From: Eledone cirrhosa
Lineage: Eukaryota
DNA length: 64,000 bases
Direction: 5' to 3'
NCBI GenBank assembly: GCA_964016885.1
Contig: OZ024741.1
Coordinates: 306,032,001-306,096,000 of the forward strand
Each line of letters opens with the position of its first letter. Position 1 is the stretch's first letter. The notes beneath the pieces are model-generated. The model was not told the DNA's origin, made no database searches, and was given only the letters and a program-made list of their open reading frames with translations. A program made the translations under genes and the position numbers. Of the stretch, positions 8,944-61,600 are shown in pieces.

Positions 8944-9852
8944 CTGTATTTCTACTTTCGACACAATGTCAGTAATTTGGAAGAAGGGGAAAGTTGAATA
9001 AATCAACTCCAATACTTGACTGGTACTTTATTGATCTTGACAGGATGAAAGGCAAAGTTGTTGACTTTGATGGGATTTGAACTCAGGATATGACGGTCCA
9101 AAAGAACTGCTGTGAAGCATTCTGTCAGATGCTTTAACAATTCTGTCAATCTACTACCCTATCTGTACAGAAATTATACAAGATTGAACCAATGTTGCAT
9201 AAATGTGTAAATAAATACATTGACATATGTAAATACATACCTATTTTATGTGTTTACAAAGCAAATATCTTACCATTTGGTCATCTAATGGGCTCTTTTA
9301 TACCACAGACTCAATGCCACCAGCAAATTTCAGATCCACAGTGAAGATTGAATGCAGTGCTGTATGGAGATGTTAGTGGAATTCTGATCCAGTACCTATA
9401 CTCTAGAGTCAACAAAGGGCATCTATATGTGACTATTTGACTTGCTAGAAATAGCAGCCAAATCTTCCTGAAATCATGCTCTATTACTATATTTTAGAAT
9501 GGAAAGATATATCGAATAATGTAGGCTTAAAAAAACTGTGTAAAACTATAGAATGAACAGGATGGTCATGGTTGGAAAGGAGCTAAATAACAACAGCCAA
9601 CTCCTAGAGATAATAATTGTTTCTACTTTAGGCACAAGGCCAGCAATTTGAATGGGAGGGGAAGGTCAATTAAATCGACCCCAGTGCATTATTGATGCTT
9701 TATTTTATCAACCCCCATAAGTTTGGTACTTACATTATCAATCTGTCTTATTGAATCTGTAAATTACAGGACATAAACAAACAGTAAATATAAACGCACA
9801 TACACACACACATATATATATATATTTATGCATGTGTGCATAATATATATAT

Positions 9853-10159
9853 AAACAAGAAATGTAAGTCGGCGGGTTAAAATTAACTTTGTTTATCCAT
9901 ATTCACTGTTATATATATTTCGGTGATAACCATTATTCAACAGATATGACCTCATCAAACAGCTAGAACTTGAATAGAAAAAAACCCAGAAAAAACATAA
10001 TGATGGACATATCAAAAGATCGAAATAACAGAGATAAACTATTCTAGCTGTCTGACGAGGTCATAGCTGTTGTTTAATGGTTATCACCAAAATATATATA
10101 TATAAGCGAATATGAATGAACAAGGTTAATTTTAGCCTGTTGACTTACACTTCTTGTTT
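9853..10159. repeat. Inverted repeat (~125-bp arms), each arm carrying a degenerate hammerhead ribozyme (Penelope pLTR-like)
   Basis: Right arm gctgt-CTGACGA-ggtcata..tatcacc-aAAA-tatata; left arm (minus) gctgt-tTGATGA-ggtcata..tatcacc-GAAA-tatata-TA-acagt. Confidence 0.7.
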
Positions 10160-10269
10160 TTAAATTACTCTGGAGTAAACAGACCCACCTGCACACTTCA
10201 TTGAGTGCTCTACCCTGCACACTGAAGTGTCGCTAATTAACCAACACATACTAAAATTTATATATATAT

Positions 10270-10614
10270 ATATCACAGAAAAAAAGAGAATCAGTGTTGC
10301 GACGAATGGAATTTATTGGACATATTGCAATCGTTTCTCTGGCAACCAGCTTGAGGCACGATCGGTGTGATGATCGAACCTGACTCTGAAAATTGCAAGG
10401 TCCTCAGATACGTCTTGATTCTACGAAGCAGATTTTCCTATGTCCTTTTTGGACAAAAGGACATAGGAGAATCAAGACGTATCTGAGGCGATTTTCAGAG
10501 TCAGGTTCGATCATCACATCGATCGTGCCTCGAGCTGGTTGCCAGAGAAACGATTGTAATATGTCCAATAAATTCCATTCATCGCAACACTGATTCTCTC
10601 TTTTTCTGTGATAT
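10270..10614. repeat. Near-perfect ~345-bp foldback made of two inverted degenerate hammerhead units
   Basis: Arms pair end to end around the central hairpin cctatgtcctttt/aaaaggacatagg; each arm reads gacgtat-CTGAGG(A/C)...gttgccaga-GAAAC gatt G(T/C)A-atatgtc-caataaa. Confidence 0.75.
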
Positions 10615-11389
10615 CATACTCTGCCCTATGAGAGCATCGAGTGCTCATACAGCCTACCGCATACGGACACTTTAAGCATCCAACACCAATTATATATATA
10701 TATACATATATATAATATATATAATCCATTGAAATTATTGGGGTTCGAAGAAGAAAGAACATGTTTGTCACAGATTAATAAAAATAAAATCAGGAAAATT
10801 AACAGAGAAGACAACAAACGAAAATAAGGCAGAATGAAAAAAAGTTTCTTTAAAGGAGAAACCTTAAAAGAATTGCTTTTTGCCTAGTCGTCACATAGAA
10901 TTCTATGTGTACCTGTTATGGCGTAATTGCTGTAAGTTATTGTTTTGTCTTGTCTTTTATTCCATGGAGAGTGCTTTGACTTGTATCAGATTCTGTGACT
11001 CCAGGTGGACCAGCAGTGCCATCGATAGGGGTCAAACCTGCCAAAGTCCATCTTGATGGCCGAAGACCTTGGAGTTCTATGTCTTTGTTTTGTTTTGTTT
11101 TTGTTTCTTTATTTAAATAATTTTTTTTTTTTTATATATGATGTGTTTCCATACAGTTTCTGCTATAAAATTTCACTATGGCATTAGTTAACTTGAGGCT
11201 ATAGTAGAAGACACTTGCCTAAGGTGCCACACATTTGACTGAGGGGAGCAATGTGAAATGAAGTGTCTTGCTAAAGATGCAATGCATTGCTGAGAATCAT
11301 GGCTGTATGATTGTGAGTCAAACACCCTCACCACTGAACAATGTGCTTTCAAACCTATTAATGAATGAACAATTAAAAATATCAATTAC

Positions 11390-13940: not shown

Positions 13941-14653
13941 AGAAAGAAGGGTGGTTTCGGAGCATTGAAGTATGCGTGTTGGCTTTCTGACAATGAAATG
14001 AAGAAGAATGTCTGGGCAGTTTCCCAGTCACATTTGAAGGATTTATGAGTATGGAACAAACTAGCTGCATCAGTTGTTAGTTGTCAGGACACTGCATCCT
14101 TAAAAACTTCCATGCTTCCCAAAATTCACCAAAACTATACCTGATATTCCGCCTCCATAAACATGCACACATGTGTGTGTGTGTCTGTGTGTATATTATG
14201 ATTCATACACTGTTCACTTTCCTGACATTTGTACATCATTCTACGTACTATACATGCACCTTCGATGGGTCATAGTGCACCTGAGCACTGTACACAATAA
14301 CTTTCATTATTACTATATATACCAACAGCAGCAACATATGTATGTGTCAGTGATTGTGTCATGTTTGTGTTTATGTTTACTTTTACAATGCTCTAAAAAC
14401 CAGTGTTATTTATGTTGTATCCCCTTATGTCACATCATTTAGCAGTGCAAGAATAAGTTCAGAACAATATGATCAATTGAAGGCTGTGGGTCTGTCCCTT
14501 CCCCAACCCACTCAATATGGCCCACCGCACTTCAATGGTTGTGTCCCAGCATGGATTCATCACAGTCTAATGACTGAAATCAGTAAAAGACAAAAAGAAT
14601 CAACCATAATAATATGCCATGTGTGTTTGTGTGTAAGTATATATATATATATA

Positions 14654-16475
14654 GGTAAAGGAGACGCCCTAGATAGGAGTAACTATAGAGGCATTAAATT
14701 AATCGACCAGGTCATGAAGGTCACGGAAAAAGTAATAGCGCAACTAATCAGAGAGAGAATTGACCTAGATGAAATGCAGTTCGGGTTTGTGTCAGGCAAA
14801 AGTACCACAGACGCTCTTTTCATAGTACGACAACTACAAGAGAAGTTCCTAGCTAAAGGTAAACCCCTCTACTTAGCTTTTGTCGACTTGGAGAAAGCCT
14901 TCGACAGAGTCCCCCGCTCCATTATCTGGTGGGCTCTTAGAAAACTAGGCGTTGACGAATGGCTTGTGAGGGCTATACAAGCCATGTATAAAGAAACAGT
15001 CAGCAAGGTTAGAATTAACAACGAATATAGTGAAGAGTTTAGCGTAAAAGTTGGCGTCCATCAGGGCTCTGTTCTCAGCCCCCTACTATTTATTATTGCC
15101 CTTCAGGCTATAACAGAGGAGTTCAAGACAGGCTGCCCATGGGAACTCCTATACGCAGACGACCTGACACTCATAGCGGAATCAATGGCCGAGCTAGAGA
15201 AGAAATTCCAAACATGGAAGCACGGCCTAGAGTCAAAAGGACTTAAAATTAACCTGGCTAAGACCAAAGTTCTAGTTTGTAGGAAAGAAAACAAGGCGGC
15301 GGTCCCTTCTGGGAAATGGTCGTGTTCGGTGTGTAGGAAAGGCGTAGGTAGAAACTCCATTTTATGTCCTAAATGCAAAGTATGGGTGCATAAAAGATGT
15401 AGTGGGATCACAGGTAAGCTAACTAAGAACATAGATTTTACATGTGGCCGGTGTTCTGGTGCAATAAGTAGCAGCAAGTGCCCACAAAATACTAGCTCTT
15501 TCAATTGCGCAGAGGGTTCTATAGAAATAGTGGACAGCTTCCGTTACCTGGGCGATAAAATCAGCAGTGGGGGAGGGTGCTCTGAAAGTACTGTAGCTAG
15601 AGTCAGAACTGGTTGGAAAAAGTTCAGAGAGCTTATACCACTATTAGCTGCTAAAGGGTTCTCCCTAAAAATGAAAGGCAGGTTGTACGATGCCTGCATA
15701 CGAACAGCAATGTTGCATGGCAGTGAGACCTGGGCATTGTGTGCAGAGGATATACGCAGACTAGAGAGGAACGAAGCTTGCATGCTCCGCTGGATGTGTA
15801 ACAGTAATATACGTGAACGGCAAAGCATAAACGAACTAAGGAAAAAATTAGAGATAAGAGGGATCAGATGTTGTTTACTCGAGAGAAGGCTACGTTGGTA
15901 TGGACACGTGATGCGCATGAAAGTCGATAGCTGTATAACAAAGTGCAGGGCAATAAAGATAGACGGTAGCCACGGAATAGGCAGACCTAGAAAAACCTGG
16001 GACGACCTGATAAACTCCGACCTCACACACTTACACCTCTCCAAGACAATGTCACTGGACCGAGACCTTTGGCGGTACTCAGTAACAGAGAAGACCCGCC
16101 TTGCCAGTAGGCATCTCTAACAAAATACACCCCGTCCCGCCACCACCCCCACCCATCCACACCACCCCGTCCTATGTAAAGTTATGTTGGTGCCGCGCCA
16201 TCGAGGCCGAAACAAATGAGATCGTGTAGGTGTCACGACAAAAAAACACACAGTCCACGCTATAATGTGGCCGTGTAGGCAACACGGTAAAAACCTCCCA
16301 GACCCACACTGTAAATGTGGTTGGTGTTAGGAAGGGCATCCAACTGTAGAAAACCTGCCAGACAGTCCTATGCGAGCAAGACAATCACTCTTGCCTCAAG
16401 TGGGACTACTCCCGTCCAAACCCATGCAAGCGTGGAACACGGACGTTAAACGTTGATGATGATGATGATGATGAT
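14654..16475 (+). mobile_element. 5'-truncated RTE-clade LINE: uninterrupted RT + PHD finger + C-terminus, 3' UTR, (GAT)n tail
   Basis: NYRGIKL, QFGF, FVDLEKAFDRV, GVHQGSVLSP, LYADD, CSVC..CPKC..WVHKRC..CGRC, RLRWYGHV, GRPRKTW; the ORF N-terminus (14354-14653) is unrelated flank. Confidence 0.93.
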
Positions 16476-16938: not shown

Positions 16939-17354
16939 ACACACATGTATACAAATATATAAATGTATGTGTATATATACGTATATATATGTATGTATAT
17001 ATGTGTGCGTGTGTGTGAATGTATGTATGAAATAAATGTTAAGGCAGAAGTTACATAATTATAATTAATAAATAATGAATAAGTAGCTTCTGTCTTAATG
17101 TTTATTTCATACATGGTAACTCCATTATGTTTGATCACCACCTTTAAGCTAAATAGATACAACTGACGTAAAGGGCTCCTATCAATTTACACTTGTTAAT
17201 CAGTGAGAAGTTATTACACAACTAGCAATTTATACATTTATATATATATATATATATAAAACAAAATATGTTTTCGCTCTGAGTGTGGTGAATACCTAAG
17301 TGTATTCATGAGTGAATAGTAATATTATAGTAATATCATAATATTATTAATATA

Positions 17355-19032
17355 TGATAGAGTTATAGCACAGTTGATTAGGGACCGGGTGAAACTAGAT
17401 GAGATGCAATTTGGGTTTGTACCAGGAAGAGGCACCACTGATGCCTTCTTCCTTGTGAGGCAGTTACAGGAAAAGTACCTAGCTAAAAGTAAGCCACTCA
17501 TCCTGGCATTCGTCGATCTCGAGAAAGCCTTTGACAGAGTTCCATGTGCTATAATTTGGTGGGCTCTTAGAAAACTAGGAGTAGATGAATGGCTTGTGAA
17601 AGCTGTACAAGCCATGTATAGGGGAGCAGTCAGCAAAGTTAGGATTAGCAATGAGTATAGCGAGGAATTTAGCGTACAGGTTGGTGGCCACCAGCACTCT
17701 GTTCTTAGCCCTCTCCTGTTCATCATAGTCCTGCAGGCAATAATGGAGGAGTTTAAGACCGGATGCCCATGGGAACTCCTGTATGCAGATGACCTCGCAC
17801 TTATAGCTGAATCTATGGTAGAACTAGAGAAGAAATTCCAAACTTGGAAGCAGGGACTAGAAAGAAAGGGTCTCAAAGTCAACGTGACAAAGACTAAGGT
17901 CCTTGTAAGTAGACGAGAAAACAGAACCCAGATCCCCTCAGGGAAATGGCCTTGCTCAGTATGGAGGAAAGGTGTAGGTAGGAACTCCATTCTCTGCCCC
18001 AAATGCAAACAATGGGTACACAAGAGATGTAGCGGGATCTCAGGAAGCTTAATTAAGAATGTAGGCTTCACATGTAGCAGCAAACAGCCACAGGAAACAA
18101 GTACCACCAATCTCTGGGAGGGCTCTGTAGAAACAGTAGACAGCTTCTGCTACCTAGGTGACCGAATTAGCAGCGGAGGTGGATGTTCAGAAAGTACAAT
18201 AACTAGGGTAAGAACGGGATGGAAGAAGTTCAGGGAACTACTACCACTGCTAGCTGCAAAAGGCTTTTCCCTCAAAATGAAAGGCAGACTGTATGATGCG
18301 TGTATCCGAACAGCAATGTTACATGGTAGTGAGACCTGGGTACTGAAGGTGGAAGACTTACGTAGATTAGAAAGAAACGAAGCCTGCATGCTCCGATGGA
18401 TGTGTAATAGTAATATACGCGAACGGCAAAGCATAAATGAATTGAGAGAGAGACTGAGCATAAGAGGAATCAAATGCTGTGTGCAGGAGAGGTGGTTGCG
18501 TTGGTATGGACATGTGATGCGTATGAAGGATGACAGCTGCATAAAAAGGTACAGAGCACTAGAAGTCAATGGAAACTGCGGAGTGAGGAGACCCTAGAAG
18601 ACCTGGGATGAGGTGATAAAAGCCGACCTTACCCAATTACACCTCTCAAAGGCGATGACACACGACCGTGACCTCTGGCGTTACGCAGTAATACAGAGTA
18701 CCCGACTTCCCATGGGTCCAAGCTGAAGCATATAGACAATATGCCCCCACACCCTCCCACTGCAAAGTGGTCGTGGAGGTGCCATGGCAAAAAAGCACCC
18801 AGCCCACACTGTAAAGTGGACGTGTAGGTGCCACGCAAAAAAGCACCCAGCATTCTCTGTAAATGAGGTTGGTGTTAGGAAGGGCATCCAGCTGTAGAAA
18901 TCAAGCCAAAATCAGTTTCTGTATGAGCAAGACATGGTCAGCTGACCAGACACTGCCCACAACAGGACAACCTGTCTAACCCATGCTAGCATGGAAGAAC
19001 GTATGTAAAACGATGATGATGATGATGATGAT
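17355..19032 (+). mobile_element. 5'-truncated RTE LINE (RT, damaged PHD, premature stop) inserted into a tandem repeat unit
   Basis: ORF 17374-18597 with DLEKAFD and LYADD; 3' UTR and (GAT)n; the two flanks rejoin into a unit repeated at 19310-19530. Confidence 0.9.
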
Positions 19033-33054: not shown

Positions 33055-36000
33055 TTATATTTTCTTTTTTTGAACTCGTGATAATGCAACATACATCTGA
33101 CCATGTGAGAAGAATTGTGTTGGTAGATATACACCTATCTTTTCAAATGTCTGCCCTTGTGCCTTGTTGCATGTAAGGGCAAAGGCTGGTTTAACAGGAA
33201 ATTGCTGGTGAGTAAAGGTGAAAGGGAACTCAAGCTCTTGAGATACATATGGTATCCTTGGGATTAGCAAACTTGTTCCAGCATTGGGACCCAATGCCAC
33301 TTCAGCTTCAATTACATGATTATGTAAACTGATGATGATGTAGTGTGTACCATTGCAATGCCCGTTTAGAGGATCCATATTTCTCAGAAGGATGATGCAA
33401 CTGCCTTTCTTCAGTTTAAGTATGTGTGTTGGGAAGCCTGATGGGGTAAGTTTGTTGATGAACTCAATTGGCTATTGCAGTTCCAGAGCTTCTGTAGATT
33501 ATTTCATGACCAGGGAACTTGTTGACCATAAACTCATTCACCAATCTTGCTGCATCATTTGTTGGAGTGATAATGGCTCTATTTGCAAGCCATAGTGAGT
33601 TTGTGTAGTTTCCTGGAAGATTTGTATACACAAAATCAGACAGTCCAGACACATTACCATATTCCAGACAAAGTTCATTTGGCAGAAGAATTGTGAATGC
33701 ACCTACAGTTGGAATGTTACCATTTCCCACATCAAGAAGGTAGTTTACAACTTGTCTTTCATCAGAATCCTCTGCATTAATTAACCTTTGATTGGTTGTC
33801 ATCTCCATGGTTTCCACATAGTCCCAGAGATAGGATCTCTTGATGGTTGCCTCAAGTATTTGTGGTCTAGCACCATAACGTACAACTGGAAGAATTTGCT
33901 TCCAGTCACCAGATAGTAATACTGTTAGACCACCAAATGGCTTTTTGCAATCTCGAACATCTTTGAAGCTCCTGTCAAGGCATTCAAAGATATGCTTATG
34001 TCCCATACCTATCTCATCAATGATTAGCAGGTCAGCTTGCTGCATAAGTTTACCTGTGTCATCCCTCTTTGTGAAGAAGCAAGTTGATTCAGCAGTCACA
34101 TTGAGAGGAATCTTGCACTTGGAATGAAGAGTTCTACCTTTGTGAAGTAAAGTCGCTGCTATTCCAGATATGGCAGTGGCAAGAGCAATTTTTTTTTTTA
34201 GATCGGAGGTAATCCAATAGGATGTTTATGACATAGGTCTTTCTTGTACCTGCACTTGCATTCAAGCAGAAAATTCTGCCTTCATTTTCATTTACAGAGG
34301 TGATTACTTTGTGAAAAGTAACCAGTTGCTCAGGATTCAATGTTGGCAGAAGTTCATTTATGTTTGCTTGCAGTTGGAGTGTATTGAAATCAGTTTCTGC
34401 CATAAGAACCCTGTTGATTTTTGGTATGGCTACAATAGTTGGGTCTGGCCGAGGAAGTCCGTAGTTGGCATGAATGTCCAAGCCATCATGTTGAAGTCTT
34501 TGTTGGATCTTCTGTAGAACAATCTGCACGGTTTGCATGGACATGACTTGTTCATGATGTTCATGCATGATATCATCTGCAAGACAATTCTTCCATTTCT
34601 CCTAGAACTGCAGAGGGTCATTTGGCACGCTGTACAATAAAATGGTGCAGAAGATCTCTCACAGCTGAGGACCAAGCGTAATGGATGAGGCGTCTTCCAT
34701 AGCTTTGTCTTTTTCTCCATCTTCATCTAACAGACCAAGTTTCTTGCATGCTTCTTGGAATATTGGAAATTCAACTCCTTCAATTGTCCTCAAATCTTTG
34801 TATGAAGTTGACCTAGCCTTGTGATGTAGGATCATCCTGACGTAATATAATTCAGATTGATGTCTACTGAGAGATACTGTTGGAATGTGTCCAAGAGATT
34901 TACTCATAAATTGTTAATCACCATCCAGATGTCCCTTTTTTCTTCTTTGCCACTTTTTGTTTGTCCAAGTGAAATATCAATATACAATATGTTTTGTGCC
35001 AGTGGGTCTCTAATATTCAGTTGAAAATATTCCGTCAACTTAATCATTGGCTGTCCCCTAGAAACAATACTTTCTTCCTGCCCTTGCTCATACATGACCA
35101 TTTGTTCCCCAGGTAAATGGTAAGGCAACTTTTCAACTGGCAGTTTCCGATGATGTAATGGAAATTTATAGATTTTCCAGAATGCTTCACTGGCTGAGAT
35201 GTACCGTGCATTGATATAGGTCTCAATCTCATTTTGGGCATGGACACAATTTCCTTGATCATCCTTAATAGTGAAAGTGATCTTGTCTGATCCGTTTGTG
35301 ATGTACTTATATAAGTACTTAACGGCCTTGATATTGTGGACAACCTCACAATTGATGTGGCACTGATATCTCAGTGCGAGGAAAGGGTTGTCCAACGATT
35401 ATCAACAGTAAATTCTTGACCTTTAAGTTGGATTGTATGGGTGTGACCACCATGCTGTCTATCCCTTCTTCTATATTCCGGAAAGGAATTTTCGGCAACA
35501 AATGTGGTTTGTCTGAATGCCTTGGTATAACTTTTTGAGCAATGGCGTTGTTGTCCTAGCCCTTCCATACATGAGCACATCATATTAGCTTGTCCCCATG
35601 GGTCATGAATGTTGCAGGATGTGATGATCTTATGCAGAATTGGATTGGTCTCTTTATCAGAAATCTCACAGTACACTACCTGATCAATGGCATCAGCAGT
35701 TTGGGGCTTGCTATCTTCAGCCATTATCAGCAGAATATGAGCATGAGTGAGGCCTCGTTTTCTGCCACTCTATTGTAGCAGAACGAGCCACAACTTTTCC
35801 TGGGACATTTTTTTTCAGTATGTCATCCATGAGGCTATCATACTTGATCTTGAAGACTCTTGCACAAATATCAGGAAGGTCTCTAGGTTCTTCACCAGGG
35901 TGCAAACTATTTTTTATTTCATCCCAGTTAGGGTTAGTTGTTACCGTGATGAAATAAGATGGCTTTCCCATGTGTCGAACCATAGTCATCGAATTCTGAA

Positions 36001-50241: not shown

Positions 50242-51807
50242 ATGGAGGAAGAAGAAAGATTAACTATTTCTAAAAATATTACCCGTTTACTACGACCGTC
50301 CATGCTATACAAGGAAATGTTGTCGAAAGCGCAAGAAGAGGCAATCAATTTAAACGTCCGTTTGTCTGAAATCAAAACCACTCTGTATCAAAAGCTTCGT
50401 GATACAACATTTGACCGTCCACTCCGAAATTACGTTTATAACTACTTGAAGAGGAATGGTCACTTTGCAGCTGAACAGAAACTGCAGCCATCATCGCAAG
50501 AATCACTTGATTACTTGTATGTGGCACAGCAAAACTGGGAGAGACGAATTGTGAAAAGTCTGAATGCTATGTGTACTGAACAAAATATATCCTTAGCTCG
50601 GAAAAGGCCTCAGAAAGACATCAACCAGATGATGAACCAGTGGACGGAACTGGGAACCAACACTCGTGAACCAACGAATATTCGCCCTGTATATGCTCCG
50701 AAAGACTTCCTTGATGCTATCATCAGTGTTCAGAACCAAAACATCAACAGGAACAGCGAAGGGCCTATGAGCATGTGGGGCATAATACAAATTGCACTGA
50801 AAGTCAGGGGTCTGGCAGAATTGCGAGCATTCTACAGTGGGATTTCAATAAAACATTGTCAAATAGGCATTGACGACAGCATCGATGGTCTGAACGACAA
50901 CTTTTTTAATGAAAATATTAAACTCGGCAATAAAGTTATAGCTCTCGGCTTAACTCCGGTATCACAGGAGTACTCCAAGAAAGGATGTCCAGTCAGCTTA
51001 CGAAAGACACTCTGGATCCAAATGCTTGGCCTTGATATAAATAACCATGATTATGTTTATTATAAACAACTAAAAAATTATGTTTTCAAACACGAACTTC
51101 TCACTGATAAACTGCTTTACAAAGACATTAAACTGACGGCGTGTAACGATGATCAATATTTTGTATTTGAGGATTTGCTATATCAAATCCTCTTACCGTT
51201 TTCGCGTGATACTTCATTGCTGTCCTGCTATGACAAAACCAGTGGCAATTTAACAAAATCTTACATTCGGGGTAAACTAGGAAACAGTGACTTCTCCGTG
51301 ATATTTCCTCCTAGTGGTGTTATACCATTCCATGGTTTCTCCATGTACGCAGCTCCATTCTGTTACCTCTACCACGAACCCGAGCAACTCTATTTCATCT
51401 TTAGAGAAATGTATTGCAGGTTTTTCTTCCGACTCCACTGCATCTCATCCCACGAAGAAGGTATTTTATCCATTTGTTTGTTGTTCGAAATACTCTTGCA
51501 GACTTTAGAACCGGAAGTTTTCCTTCATCTGAAACTGCACGGGATCCAACCACTGAAAATTGCCTTCAAGTGGTTAATTAGAGCTTTCTCTGGCTGTCTT
51601 GCGTGTGATCAGGTTTTACTTTTATGGGACCGTATACTTGCATTTGACTCATTGCAAATTCTTGCTGTTCTAGCAGCTGCCATATTTTCCTTCAGAAAGA
51701 GTAATTTAATGAAAGTGGAAACCCTTTCAGCAGCAGAAGGGGTCTTTGCTGATCTGATGACCCTGCAAATAATGCCACTTATACAACTAGCTTTGTTCTC
51801 AAAGTAA
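50242..51807 (+). CDS. TBC1D19: TBC1 domain family member 19, 521 aa, intronless CDS
   Basis: WERRI.KSLN.MC.E, RPVYAPKDFL, NDDQYFVFED, GVIPFHGFSMY, FFFRLH.ISSH, LLLWDRIL and VLAAAIF.FR are recognisable TBC1D19 motifs; complete ATG to TAA. Confidence 0.93.
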   Translation: MEEEERLTISKNITRLLRPSMLYKEMLSKAQEEAINLNVRLSEIKTTLYQKLRDTTFDRPLRNYVYNYLKRNGHFAAEQKLQPSSQESLDYLYVAQQNWERRIVKSLNAMCTEQNISLARKRPQKDINQMMNQWTELGTNTREPTNIRPVYAPKDFLDAIISVQNQNINRNSEGPMSMWGIIQIALKVRGLAELRAFYSGISIKHCQIGIDDSIDGLNDNFFNENIKLGNKVIALGLTPVSQEYSKKGCPVSLRKTLWIQMLGLDINNHDYVYYKQLKNYVFKHELLTDKLLYKDIKLTACNDDQYFVFEDLLYQILLPFSRDTSLLSCYDKTSGNLTKSYIRGKLGNSDFSVIFPPSGVIPFHGFSMYAAPFCYLYHEPEQLYFIFREMYCRFFFRLHCISSHEEGILSICLLFEILLQTLEPEVFLHLKLHGIQPLKIAFKWLIRAFSGCLACDQVLLLWDRILAFDSLQILAVLAAAIFSFRKSNLMKVETLSAAEGVFADLMTLQIMPLIQLALFSK

Positions 51808-58684: not shown

Positions 58685-61600
58685 ATCATCATCATTTTTT
58701 TTTACGTCCGCTTTTCCCTGCTTGCAAGGGTGGGGCGGGTTCTATTCAACACAGCATCTCTCCACTTGTCAAAGTCCTTCGTCATCTCCTCCGTGAGCTT
58801 CAGCGATCTGGGGTCAGCTCTCACCACCTCCGCCCATGTTTTTCGTGGTCTTCCTCTACTGCGTCTTCCTTATACTGGCATTTCTTGGCACTTCTTTACC
58901 CAGCGGTCATCCTCCAAGTGCATCACATGTCCATACTATCGGAGTCTTCTCTCCCGCACACTACAACTTATCCCTCTTATACACAGTTTCTCTCTCAACT
59001 CATCCAACCTTGGTTGTTCATGTACATTGACATTACACATCCAACGGAGCAGGTTTGCTTCATTTCTCTCCAGCCGTCGCATATCTCTGTAGTTGCTGCC
59101 CATGTCTCACTACCATGCAGCATCGCGCATCTCACACAGGCATCATATAACCGGCCTTTCGTACGCAGGGAGAAACCCTTCTTTGTCAGCAGAGGAAGCA
59201 GCTTCCTAAACTCCTTCCAACCCGTCCTTATTCTAGATACTATGGCATCGGAACAACCCCTCCCATGCTAATCTGATCACCTAGGTACTGGAAGCTATCA
59301 ACCACTTCTATAGAACCTACCTGAATTTGAAAAATGTGTCTATCACTGCGACTTCTACTGTCAAATTTCCCTGTACATCTACTGCATATGTATTTTTCCC
59401 TACCTGTTAGTTTGCCTGCTATCCCACTACATCTCTTGTGTACCCAAGATCTGCATTGTGTACATTTTATAGAATTTATGCCAGTTCCTTTTCTACATAT
59501 CGAACATGGCCATTTCCCTGATGGAATCAGAGTGTTGTCCTCTTTTCTACTTATCAACACTTTTGTCTTAGCTAGGTTCACTCTCAGTCCTCTTAATTCC
59601 AACTGCTGTTTCCATAGCCAAAATTTATTCTCTAGCTCCTCTACTGATTCTGCTATAAGAACCAGATCGTCAGCATAGAGAAGTTTCCATGAGCAGCCAG
59701 TCTTAAACTCCTCTGTTATGGCTTGGAGGACTATAATGAACAAGAGCAGGCTGAGGACCGAAACCTGATGTACTCCTACTTGTATCTGGAATTCCTCACT
59801 AAACTCCATTCCTACCCTCACTTTACTGACAGCACCTCTGTATAAAGCTTGCACTGTCCTCACAAGCCATTCCTCAACACCTAGTTTCCTTAGGGACCAC
59901 CAGATGACAGATCGGGCTACCTTATCAAAGGCCTTCTCTAGGTCAACAAAAGTTAAGTACAGTGGCTTATTCTTCTCTAAGAACCTCTCTTGTAGTTGTC
60001 TCACCAAGAAGAGGGCATCTGTTGTACTTTTTCCAGGAACAAAACCAAACTGCATCTCATCTAGTTTGACCCTTTCTCTAATTGGTTGTGCTAATATCCT
60101 TTCTGCCACTTTCATAACCTGATCCATCAGTTTTATGCCTCTATAATTGCTCCTCTCCAGAGCATCCCCATTACCTTTGTAGAAATTTATGAGAATACTG
60201 CTGCACCAGTCTTTGGGTATGACTCCGCCATATATAGCTTAATTAATGATGCGTGCAACCAGTTTATTATCTACTTCTCCTGATGCCTTCAGCATCTCAG
60301 CAACTATCCCCAACAGTCCAGTGGCCTTACCATTTTTCATTTCCTTAATTGCCTCTTGGACCCTATATTTGTCAATCTCAATAGCTGGTCCCTCTGTCGG
60401 GTCTACTAGGGGTAGTTTCTCTCTCTTCCATTTGTTCTCCACATTCATCAGCCTCTCATAATGACATTTCCAGGCCTCTTTTAAAACCCTCATGCTTCCC
60501 GAAATTCGCTCAAACTACACCTGATGTCCCCCTTCCATACACATGCACACATGTGTATATCATGACTCATGCACTGTTCATTTTCCTGACGTTTGTACAT
60601 TACCCTATGTACTATACATACACTTTTGATGAGTTGTAGTGCACCTGAGCACTGTACACAATATTTTCATTATTATTATTATTATTATTATGGACACTAA
60701 GTACACCGGCATCATTCTGGACACTTATCTCCAACAACATCCTGATTTACACTGACACACTGCCTTGCAATGCGGAACACCATACGTCTCTGATCTACTC
60801 GTCGCAGGCAAACCTCCTACTCTCAGCCTCCGTGCATGCAAGTACACCTGATGTCTATCTTCTCTCTTACCGGCTGTATATCCTTCTCTACTCCCTCCAT
60901 TTTTTCAAGCGTTCCATGCTAGTCTTTTGTCTCTACCGTGTTGTTCCACCACCAGGTCACCTTCTGTCTGGTTGGAGCTCTGCTCCAGCCACAAGTTTCT
61001 TCAATAGTCTGCAGTATGCTGTCACGTAAGAAATTCCAGTTATCATCTATGTCATACGATTCTAAAACGTCTTTTTTCTCATCATACACACCTTGAAGGG
61101 CTTTCCTAAATTTATATTTTAGTGAAAGGTCTTTTAGTTTCCAGACCTTCCTTTTCCACACCTTCCTGTATGTCTCATTTTGTCTCTTGCTTATTGAGAT
61201 GTCACTAACGACTAACCTATGCGGGGGGAGGGGGGGGGGGGTACATTCTTCCCTGGGGTATGCCTTAGTATTTGACACCATCTGTCTGTCTCACTGCCTA
61301 ACTAACAAGAAGTCAATCTGGCTTATGTGCTCACCTGATTTGTAAGTTATTAGGTGGTTGGTAGATTTCTTGAAGTTAGTGTTGCAAATGGTTAGTTCAC
61401 TTGCATCACAAAATTCAAGAAGCCTCACTCCTTCGTTTCTTGAACCATAACTGTGCCCACCATGTACCCCAGTGTAATCACCCTGGAGCTGTCCAACATA
61501 ACCATTGAAGTCTTCTCTAGCATAACAATGTTTCTGTCCTCTGTCATTGTGGCTGTTTCTAAAGTTGCTAGTAAAAGCAGTCTTTCTCTTCTTTACATAG

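Follow-up and report, generated by a model that had tools for sequence, protein, structure and literature searches.

A palindrome with two hammerhead-like motifs in Eledone cirrhosa, probably left by one insertion of a Penelope-like element into a (TA)n tract

Introduction

What kind of unit is a near-perfect palindrome that carries a hammerhead-like ribozyme motif in each of its arms? The question is raised by a foldback at positions 10270-10614 of a 64,000-nucleotide stretch of the Eledone cirrhosa genome (assembly GCA_964016885.1, contig OZ024741.1, positions 306,032,001 to 306,096,000, forward strand), which we call the window and whose coordinates are used below. A sequence-only reading of this DNA had taken the palindrome itself for the mobile unit, either a non-coding double-ribozyme palindrome of the miniature inverted-repeat transposable element (MITE) type or an ambisense retrozyme-like unit, and had pointed to a link with Penelope-like elements. 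The answer reached here keeps the link and changes the unit: the foldback is in all probability made of two 5'-truncated 3' ends of a Penelope-like element, which meet head to head within a (TA)n tract and likely derive from a single insertion.

The sections of Craig et al. 2021 cited here (PMC8557442) describe Penelope-like elements that are heavily truncated at the 5' end and bear there an inverted copy, itself 5'-truncated; a tail of 30-40 bp often stands at one end only, and the targets are (TA)n. Elements of the Hydra clade show strong divergence, use (TA)n as insertion sites and have hammerheads without exception. According to the parts of Frangieh et al. 2024 cited here (PMC11167929), the purified protein of a Penelope-like element cleaves an AT-rich target on both strands and extends the two of them, reverse transcription begins at two internal RNA sites whose interval is the genomic tail, and hammerhead mutants insert normally in vitro. 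The hammerheads in Penelope-like terminal repeats, as far as the cited portion of Cervera and de la Pena 2014 goes (PMC4209133), are minimal type I motifs with a short helix III closed by a palindromic loop, an enlarged helix II and an unpaired 5' base; their in vitro activity is low, and pairs of motifs on opposite strands, 100-700 bp apart, are reported for Schistosoma.

Results

The foldback and its two hammerhead-like arms

The palindrome is real. A repeat search of the window delimits arms at 10270-10396 and 10488-10614, 127 nt long and 95% complementary, with an inner perfect inverted pair of 21 nt, and the RNA fold of the foldback reaches -274.8 kcal/mol against -85.5 +/- 4.7 kcal/mol for shuffled sequences (z = -40.7). 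From the repeat search and the comparison of copies, the left arm is a tail-less, inverted, 5'-truncated 3' end of the element on the minus strand (10274-10439), while the right arm lies in forward orientation (10445-10614) and bears a private 14-nt deletion near the centre; the RNA fold places the axis and the loop joining the two arms at 10440-10444. Both arms extend about 10 nt past the commonest arm start of the family, and the same upstream letters are found in longer copies. On the left, a (TA)n tract (10260-10273), read as the insertion target and present on the same side in other copies, divides the foldback element from an adjoining stub. On the right, the repeat continues into a one-sided tail of 77 bp (10615-10692, plus strand), which contains ATCGAGTGCTC and an AC-rich end, CCAACACCAATTA, and adjoins a second (TA)n-rich target tract (10692-10727). 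The sequence-only reading had thus seen a genuine palindrome but had closed the unit too early, at 10614, and had missed the conserved tail.

Each arm reads outward as a hammerhead-like motif followed by AATAAA, just as that reading had it. The plus-arm motif (10476-10565) comprises gacgtat (10476-10482), CTGAGGC (10483-10489), GAAAC (10547-10551) followed by gatt, GTA (10556-10558) and atatgtc (10559-10565), with AATAAA (10567-10572) directly 3' of helix I. The minus-arm motif (10319-10414) reads, in plus coordinates, ATACGTC (10408-10414), TCCTCAG (10401-10407, that is CUGAGGA), GTTTC (10333-10337), TGC (10326-10328, that is GCA and not GUA), GACATAT (10319-10325) and TTTATT (10312-10317), the mirror of AATAAA. 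It is built of helix I, CUGAGGA, a 63-nt helix II, GAAAC GAUU and GCA; in the plus arm helix I and GAAAC GAUU GUA are intact and the core box is CUGAGGC. Helix I pairs gacgtat with atatgtc in 7 pairs, one of them G.U. The AATAAA of the arms lies within a block, CAATAAATT, that is conserved also in the sister family B described below.

The reciprocal defects reported for the two arms are both present. In the minus arm, GCA results from a private U16.1 to C change. In the plus arm, the CUGAGGC box and the stem II deletion are one event, a 6-nt deletion of A9 together with the 5 nt that open helix II, visible in the alignment as 6 gap columns behind CTGAGG. Because of these private defects the window copy fails the type I hammerhead descriptor on both arms, and both of its hammerhead-like copies appear to be disabled by private mutations.

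An abundant family whose majority sequence is intact

The genome of the same assembly (3.0 Gb) was searched with the palindrome as query, and the best 40 of 2420 first-look candidates were scored. All 40 are full length (at least 335 of the 345 bases, 83-100% identity), and the expected multi-copy family therefore exists. The alignment used below holds 38 full-length copies, hence 76 arms. In its majority sequence each arm carries a 7-bp helix I, CTGAGGA and GAAAC GATT GTA, so that the family consensus retains CUGANGA, GAAA and UH, the three elements on which the sequence-only reading had made its ribozyme claim depend. The defects of the window copy are private because neither arm of this majority shows them, both reading CUGAGGA, GAAAC and GUA. 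At the triplet, 61/76 arms have GTA and 2/76 have GCA, and CTGAGGC occurs in 1/76. Exact CTGAGGA is found in 45/76 arms and other CTGANGA forms in three more; GAAAC is kept in 60/76.

The generic type I descriptor required CUGANGA, the helix II base, GAAA, a short helix III, UH and at least 6 of 7 helix I pairs. The full descriptor is satisfied in 49/76 arms, of which 40 have all seven helix I pairs; counted by copy, both arms satisfy it in 17, one arm in 14 and neither in 7 (n = 38). The generic descriptor gives 45 matches in the 38 family palindromes, about 10 matches, belonging to other hammerhead families, in loci of the same genome that total 221.5 kb, and none in 100 shuffles of the 64-kb window. 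Judged by these counts, the hammerhead-like motif exceeds chance. The mean distance of an arm from the majority is 3.6% (3.2-3.3% for the window copy), and arms diverge by 5.4% within a copy against 6.9% between copies.

The arms as separate copies of one template

That the palindrome is itself the mobile unit, non-coding and MITE-like or ambisense and retrozyme-like, agrees with the first sample, in which the best 40 matches are all full-length palindromes of 320-360 bp and no difference between the arms is visible by eye in their majority sequences. This sample, however, had been selected by the palindromic query itself, and for that reason we drew a second one, whose query was limited to the tail and the final 55 nt of the arm (1676 candidates, 29 new loci).

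The two samples agree on an asymmetric unit. In the first, the 77-bp tail adjoins the palindrome on one side only in 38/38 loci, at 74-100% identity, and the side opposite the tail is (TA)n. In the second, the tail end is conserved in 29/29 loci and is followed 3' by TA repeats in 27/29 by eye, the exceptions being L093 (none) and L100 (which begins CA). The tail-bearing forward arms of these 29 loci start anywhere from reference position 1 to 118, with clusters near 1 and at 93-118, and an inverted partner abuts their 5' end in 20/29. For 18 of the 20 partners the end, without a tail, falls at reference positions 169-174, which is the internal point ...CTGTGATAT; of the other two, one stops at 140 and one has the tail. 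The left arm of the window stops at the same internal point, ...CUGUG(AUAU), as the 18. Partner arms are often unequal (107-249 with 2-171; 5-249 with 48-171), and two more copies, L085 and L090, have inverted stubs of only 12-18 nt by eye.

The internal comparison of the palindromes points the same way. Their centres vary among the 38 full-length copies. Variants found in at least 3 arms are common to both arms of one copy, at mirrored positions, in 36 cases against 5.4 expected (20 against 3.0 when CpG sites are left aside), and among the 38 copies any variant restricted to one arm occurs in 3 of them at most. Because of the one-sided tail, the independent truncation, the varying centres and the mirrored shared variants, the arms are best read as separate copies of one template, made at insertion, and the palindrome is not what multiplies. 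A MITE is contradicted by the asymmetric tail, by arms that are unequal or missing in the tail-only sample and by copies that run upstream into a 5-kb element with a retroelement open reading frame (ORF). A retrozyme array is contradicted by the lack of head-to-tail repeats, no second forward copy being seen within about 500 bp of the element in either the 38 or the 29 loci. The proposal of a palindromic unit is largely refuted by these observations, and we regard it as very improbable.

Two independent insertions of the family, in opposite orientations in one TA hot spot, would also leave inverted arms. TA tracts do collect several elements, as witnessed by the different stub directly to the left of the foldback (9847-10256); locus L087 has a second copy tail to tail 135 bp away, and the genome holds thousands of copies. 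Yet the partner abuts the 5' end in 20/29 loci, with no TA tract between the arms in the junctions read, and it is tail-less in 18/20, whereas independently inserted copies should bear tails as often as the first arm does. The private variants mirrored in both arms, 6-7 times above expectation, also speak against two insertions, which makes this explanation improbable.

The arms might instead stem from a single complementary DNA (cDNA), by template switching, by fold-back of the nascent strand or by a later palindrome-forming repair, and not from priming on two strands. The symmetry of the window copy, which reaches a 5-nt loop, and the very short turn-arounds in L085, L090 and L102 are what such processes would give. 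They do not predict, however, that the arms end at different fixed 3' points, the tail for one and the internal site for the other; unequal arms are common, and a Penelope-like protein extends both strands in vitro, as stated in the cited part of the published work (PMC11167929). We consider an origin from a single cDNA unlikely, to much the same degree as two insertions.

The 5' truncation is itself uneven. About one third of the arms stop just upstream of the module and about one third at the 3' foot of helix II or at helix III, the clusters spanning reference arm positions of about -10 to +5 and 93-118. This distribution suggests that the reverse transcriptase stalls at structured RNA. The stability of the arm plus tail as RNA is ordinary (z = -0.74).

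Long copies lead to an ORF-bearing parent element

Four of the 29 tail-selected copies extend further upstream. The next 242 nt are also repeated in the genome (635 candidates), as is the sequence that precedes them. Because three copies break off at nearly one position, a 1.5-kb non-coding element was a candidate for the parent; it was rejected, further copies continuing upstream. In loci L155 and L156 an ORF region, a 2-kb untranslated stretch and the hammerhead module follow one another collinearly, and at a third locus, on contig 1, the reverse transcriptase (RT)-like part and the module share a strand, the former lying 3.2 kb upstream. The longer copies are therefore continuous with an RT/endonuclease-like ORF, and the parent measures about 5 kb with a 3' untranslated region (UTR) of 2 kb. 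This 3' UTR holds a tandem repeat with a period of about 52 bp and a varying copy number (8540-9210 in L155, 8540-8980 in L156). For the RT-like part of the parent frame, a first look in the genome gives 30404 candidates.

The L156 frame, interrupted by stops, displays a DKG-like motif (ADK.G), PVRLIAP, YRDD and YHKPN..SNHP, and further on a Cys cluster with GVDY..TYIGAT (CNC..C..GVDY..TYIGAT). An 861-aa open frame of a related family, P0002, has 65% identity to the RT part of the L156 frame. It has many homologues, down to E 1e-145, with the precomputed assignments PF26215/PF28514; Pfam GIY-YIG is matched weakly by 3/31 of these homologues, and the nearest Atlas clusters, from cnidarians, ctenophores, molluscs and arthropods, carry GIY-YIG and RVT_1. 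BLASTP of P0002 to the Penelope-like ORFs of the genome gives weak, collinear matches, and its profile aligns with that of the Penelope-like ORFs of the same genome over 565 columns (hhalign probability 98.05%, E 1.4e-13), the target being built from eight ORFs around GIY-YIG-positive sites, of which the two that were scanned are RVT_1-positive. Because of the collinearity of ORF and module and of the profile match of the related frame, the parent appears to be a very divergent Penelope-like element with a C-terminal endonuclease. The suspected Penelope link thereby holds, with support from three sides, namely the architecture of the insertions, the ORF-bearing parent copies and the homology of the related frame with Penelope-like RT/endonuclease ORFs; the description as non-coding holds for the window stub but not for the parent.

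Several observations weigh against this interpretation of the foldback and its parent. All the family ORF copies examined (L155, L156, L158 and L169) are interrupted by stops, and the homology with Penelope-like ORFs is that of P0002, 65% identical in the RT part, and not that of the broken parent itself. In the P0002 frame, Pfam at E <= 1 finds neither RVT_1 nor GIY-YIG, and sequence searches of the PDB with the frame and with its profile find no match. The ORF partner was reached only by walking upstream from the long copies: neither BLAST nor the tail motif connected the first 38 GIY-YIG loci (30 + 8) with the element. The tail, at 77 bp, is longer than the 30-40 bp described. Finally, target-site duplications are unreadable in (TA)n, and therefore the flanks cannot prove a single event.

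The hammerhead-like fold and the sister family B

The family fold, which we name family A, is of type I, with a 7-bp helix I, CUGAGGA, the 63-nt helix II, GAAA, a 2-bp helix III and GUA. A sister family, B, was located beside a related ORF (L163 3235-3384 and 24 further loci, L170-L193). It has 2134 first-look candidates whose copies are 96-99% identical, and it is young. Its module, homologous to that of family A, has the core CCGACGA, GAAAC AAUU GUA and the helix I GUGU/ACAC.

To compare the families, the family A structure was counted on 8 + 8 sequences. Pairing is kept in 93.7% of the cells against 27-38% with slid partners, and 24/26 gap-free pairs are still paired in family B. Five pairs show two-sided changes, one in helix I and four in helix II, and two mismatches beside the core are common to A and B. 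Because of this pairing and of the five two-sided changes, selection has acted on the helices in the lineages behind the copies; the comparison involves two lineages only, so that the five events on one branch are not a broad covariation test. Within family A the pair changes are 108 broken, 50 one-sided and 3 two-sided. Mostly broken pairs are expected of dead, neutrally decaying copies, and covariation within the family is uninformative.

The following points weigh against an active ribozyme. The Rfam hammerhead search finds nothing at the gathering score in the whole window and nothing at E <= 10 in 9600-11000, and the intact copy L134 has no Rfam hammerhead at E <= 1; the 63-nt helix II is a likely reason for this silence. 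Positions 10.1 and 11.1 are both unpaired (C.A in family A, A.C in family B), and family B has C at core U4. The hammerhead fold is never that of minimum energy in the descriptor-matching arms (0/49, mean -20.0 against -24.9 kcal/mol), and in the isolated motif it lies 1.5-5 kcal/mol above the minimum-energy fold. The within-family counts given above, dominated by broken pairs, also speak against activity. The truncated copies do not mark the predicted cleavage site either: their 5' ends at reference positions 105-118 lie 1-12 nt around it (117), and none falls exactly there.

The fold might have been kept for a structural job and not for cutting, either the pairing of template RNAs through helix III or the marking of the template for the RT. 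This possibility is raised because the helices are kept by five compensatory changes while both families have the same two mismatches next to the core, and because family B thrives (more than 2000 candidates, 96-99% identity) despite its U4 to C change; it remains tentative, and we would sooner bet against it than for it. Both families have a self-complementary helix III region: ACGAUUGU in family A, where two of the pairs are G.U, and the perfect ACAAUUGU in family B. Such a region would fit either template pairing or the dimer model proposed for ribozymes of this kind.

Two observations concern AATAAA. At least four different hammerhead families of the genome have it inside the 3' strand of helix I or immediately behind that strand, the sites including 10567-10572 and 10312-10317 of the window and about 1543-1550 of L039-L050. 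It stands 41 and 119 nt from the ends of the copies, too far for an ordinary poly(A) signal.

Discussion

A model for the formation of the foldback

The model that we favour starts with one insertion into a TA tract, during which the enzyme of the element would cut both DNA strands and copy the element RNA from each of them. On one strand, copying would start at a terminal site (...CCAAUUA) and yield the arm with the 77-nt tail. On the other strand, it would start at an internal site (...CUGUGAUAU), about 78 nt upstream, and yield the inverted arm that lacks the tail. The two cDNAs would end prematurely, some 10 nt upstream of the most frequent arm start, and would be joined at their 5' ends. 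Later decay, in the form of two deletions in the right arm and of point changes, would then have disabled both ribozyme motifs. Family membership, the one-sided tail, the TA flanks and the independent truncation of the arms are seen directly in the copies, and so are the continuity of the longer copies with the ORF and the conservation of the hammerhead-like helices between the two families; we infer the single event, the two start sites and a mobilisation, in trans or in cis, by the family's own enzyme.

Comparison with known insertions and hammerheads

The foldback has much in common with the insertions of endonuclease-bearing Penelope-like elements, as the cited parts of two papers describe them (PMC8557442, PMC11167929): strong loss of 5' sequence, a truncated copy joined in inverted orientation to the 5' end, an extension on one side only, an AT-rich or (TA)n target and a hammerhead close to the 3' end of what is inserted. 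It differs from these descriptions in the length of its tail, 77 bp where the cited text gives 30-40 bp (PMC8557442), and in being a stub of about 170 nt per arm, the sampled loci having no tandem pseudo-long terminal repeats (pseudo-LTRs). The same genome also contains a hammerhead family that Rfam does recognise (RF00163, 18 matches over the cut-off), in which the hammerhead is followed by AATAAA, about 50 nt, an optional 130-nt tail and (TA)n, and in which inverted truncated partners occur; in 28 GIY-YIG loci of the genome, by contrast, Rfam has no match at the gathering score. Since this hammerhead family has the same layout and the published insertion pattern agrees, the window foldback is a known kind of insertion.

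Among the elements described, the Hydra clade, matched by description only, would be the closest fit for the parent. As in the account of that clade (PMC8557442, cited sections), the ORF is divergent enough for Pfam to miss both the RT and the endonuclease, a Cys motif precedes a GIY-YIG-like block, and (TA)n insertion goes with a hammerhead; the hosts of the P0002 Atlas clusters overlap the range of the clade in aquatic invertebrates. Unlike the Hydra-clade elements, given there as '<3 kb', the parent measures about 5 kb with its 2-kb 3' UTR, and its hammerhead is not canonical.

The motif resembles the minimal type I hammerheads, as the cited portion of their description has them (PMC4209133), in its type I topology, in a helix III of 1-2 bp with a self-complementary loop suited to dimers, in a larger helix II with an unpaired 5' base and in the presence of dual motifs on opposite strands. 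It departs from them by a helix II of 63 nt instead of 6-8 bp, by having both 10.1 and 11.1 unpaired, by a longer helix I (7 bp) and by escaping the Rfam Hammerhead_1 model. Animal non-LTR retrozymes likewise consist of sequences that bear hammerheads and are related to Penelope-like pseudo-LTRs, according to the cited part of a recent preprint (bioRxiv 10.64898/2026.07.22.740005). Retrozymes form head-to-tail arrays, with possible unit-length circular RNA, whereas here a single inverted pair bears one sense ribozyme motif per strand.

An inverted and truncated pair also recalls the human L1 element. In the twin priming of L1, both ends of a staggered break prime reverse transcription and an inverted, truncated pair results. 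The L1 inversion occurs within one copy, in contrast with the present arms, which duplicate the same 3' module from two fixed template sites.

Taken alone, the window copy is an ordinary decayed retroelement stub. The family has a wider meaning, for it constitutes a natural record of Penelope-like insertion, with two fixed 3' end points, one per arm, and independent 5' truncation. These end points agree with the in vitro cutting of two strands and the extension from two internal start sites, as set out in the cited part of that work (PMC11167929). Families A and B are, in addition, two natural variants, one of them with an altered core, for probing the role of the fold. Because a variant invisible to Rfam has helices that covary between two abundant families, our results suggest that such ribozymes are under-counted in animal genomes.

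Other features of the window

The window ORFs near the element are unrelated to it. They comprise three frames of the long interspersed nuclear element (LINE) RT type with a PHD finger (14354-16120, 17323-18597 and, on the minus strand, 59240-60238), a Helitron-like frame for a PIF1-like helicase (33464-34225, minus strand) and a 521-aa open frame with a RabGAP-TBC domain (50242-51807), possibly a host exon. The last of these, 40 kb from the foldback, is the only host-like frame seen.

Directly to the left of the foldback lies a second, unrelated foldback, with arms at 9847-9968 and 10042-10165 and, on one side only, an extension of about 90 bp (10166-10256) ending in (TA)n. This second foldback contains CTGACGAG, for which no GAAA/UH partner was seen, and over its whole extent (9847-10256) it has the look of a further Penelope-type stub, stacked with the main foldback in one TA tract.

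Three unrelated families have in their tails common short motifs in one and the same order, ATYGAG(TG)CTC and then the AC-rich CCAACAC, which sits a few bases before the (TA)n junction in all three. The motifs are found at 10636-10646 and 10680-10692 in the tail of the main foldback, at 10200-10210 and 10241-10247 in its left neighbour, and at 1591-1721 of locus L040; the order comes from an alignment in two of the families and from inspection by eye in the third. They may mark the start site of reverse transcription, which in the anole element is an AC-rich stem-loop, as reported in the cited part of the study (PMC11167929).

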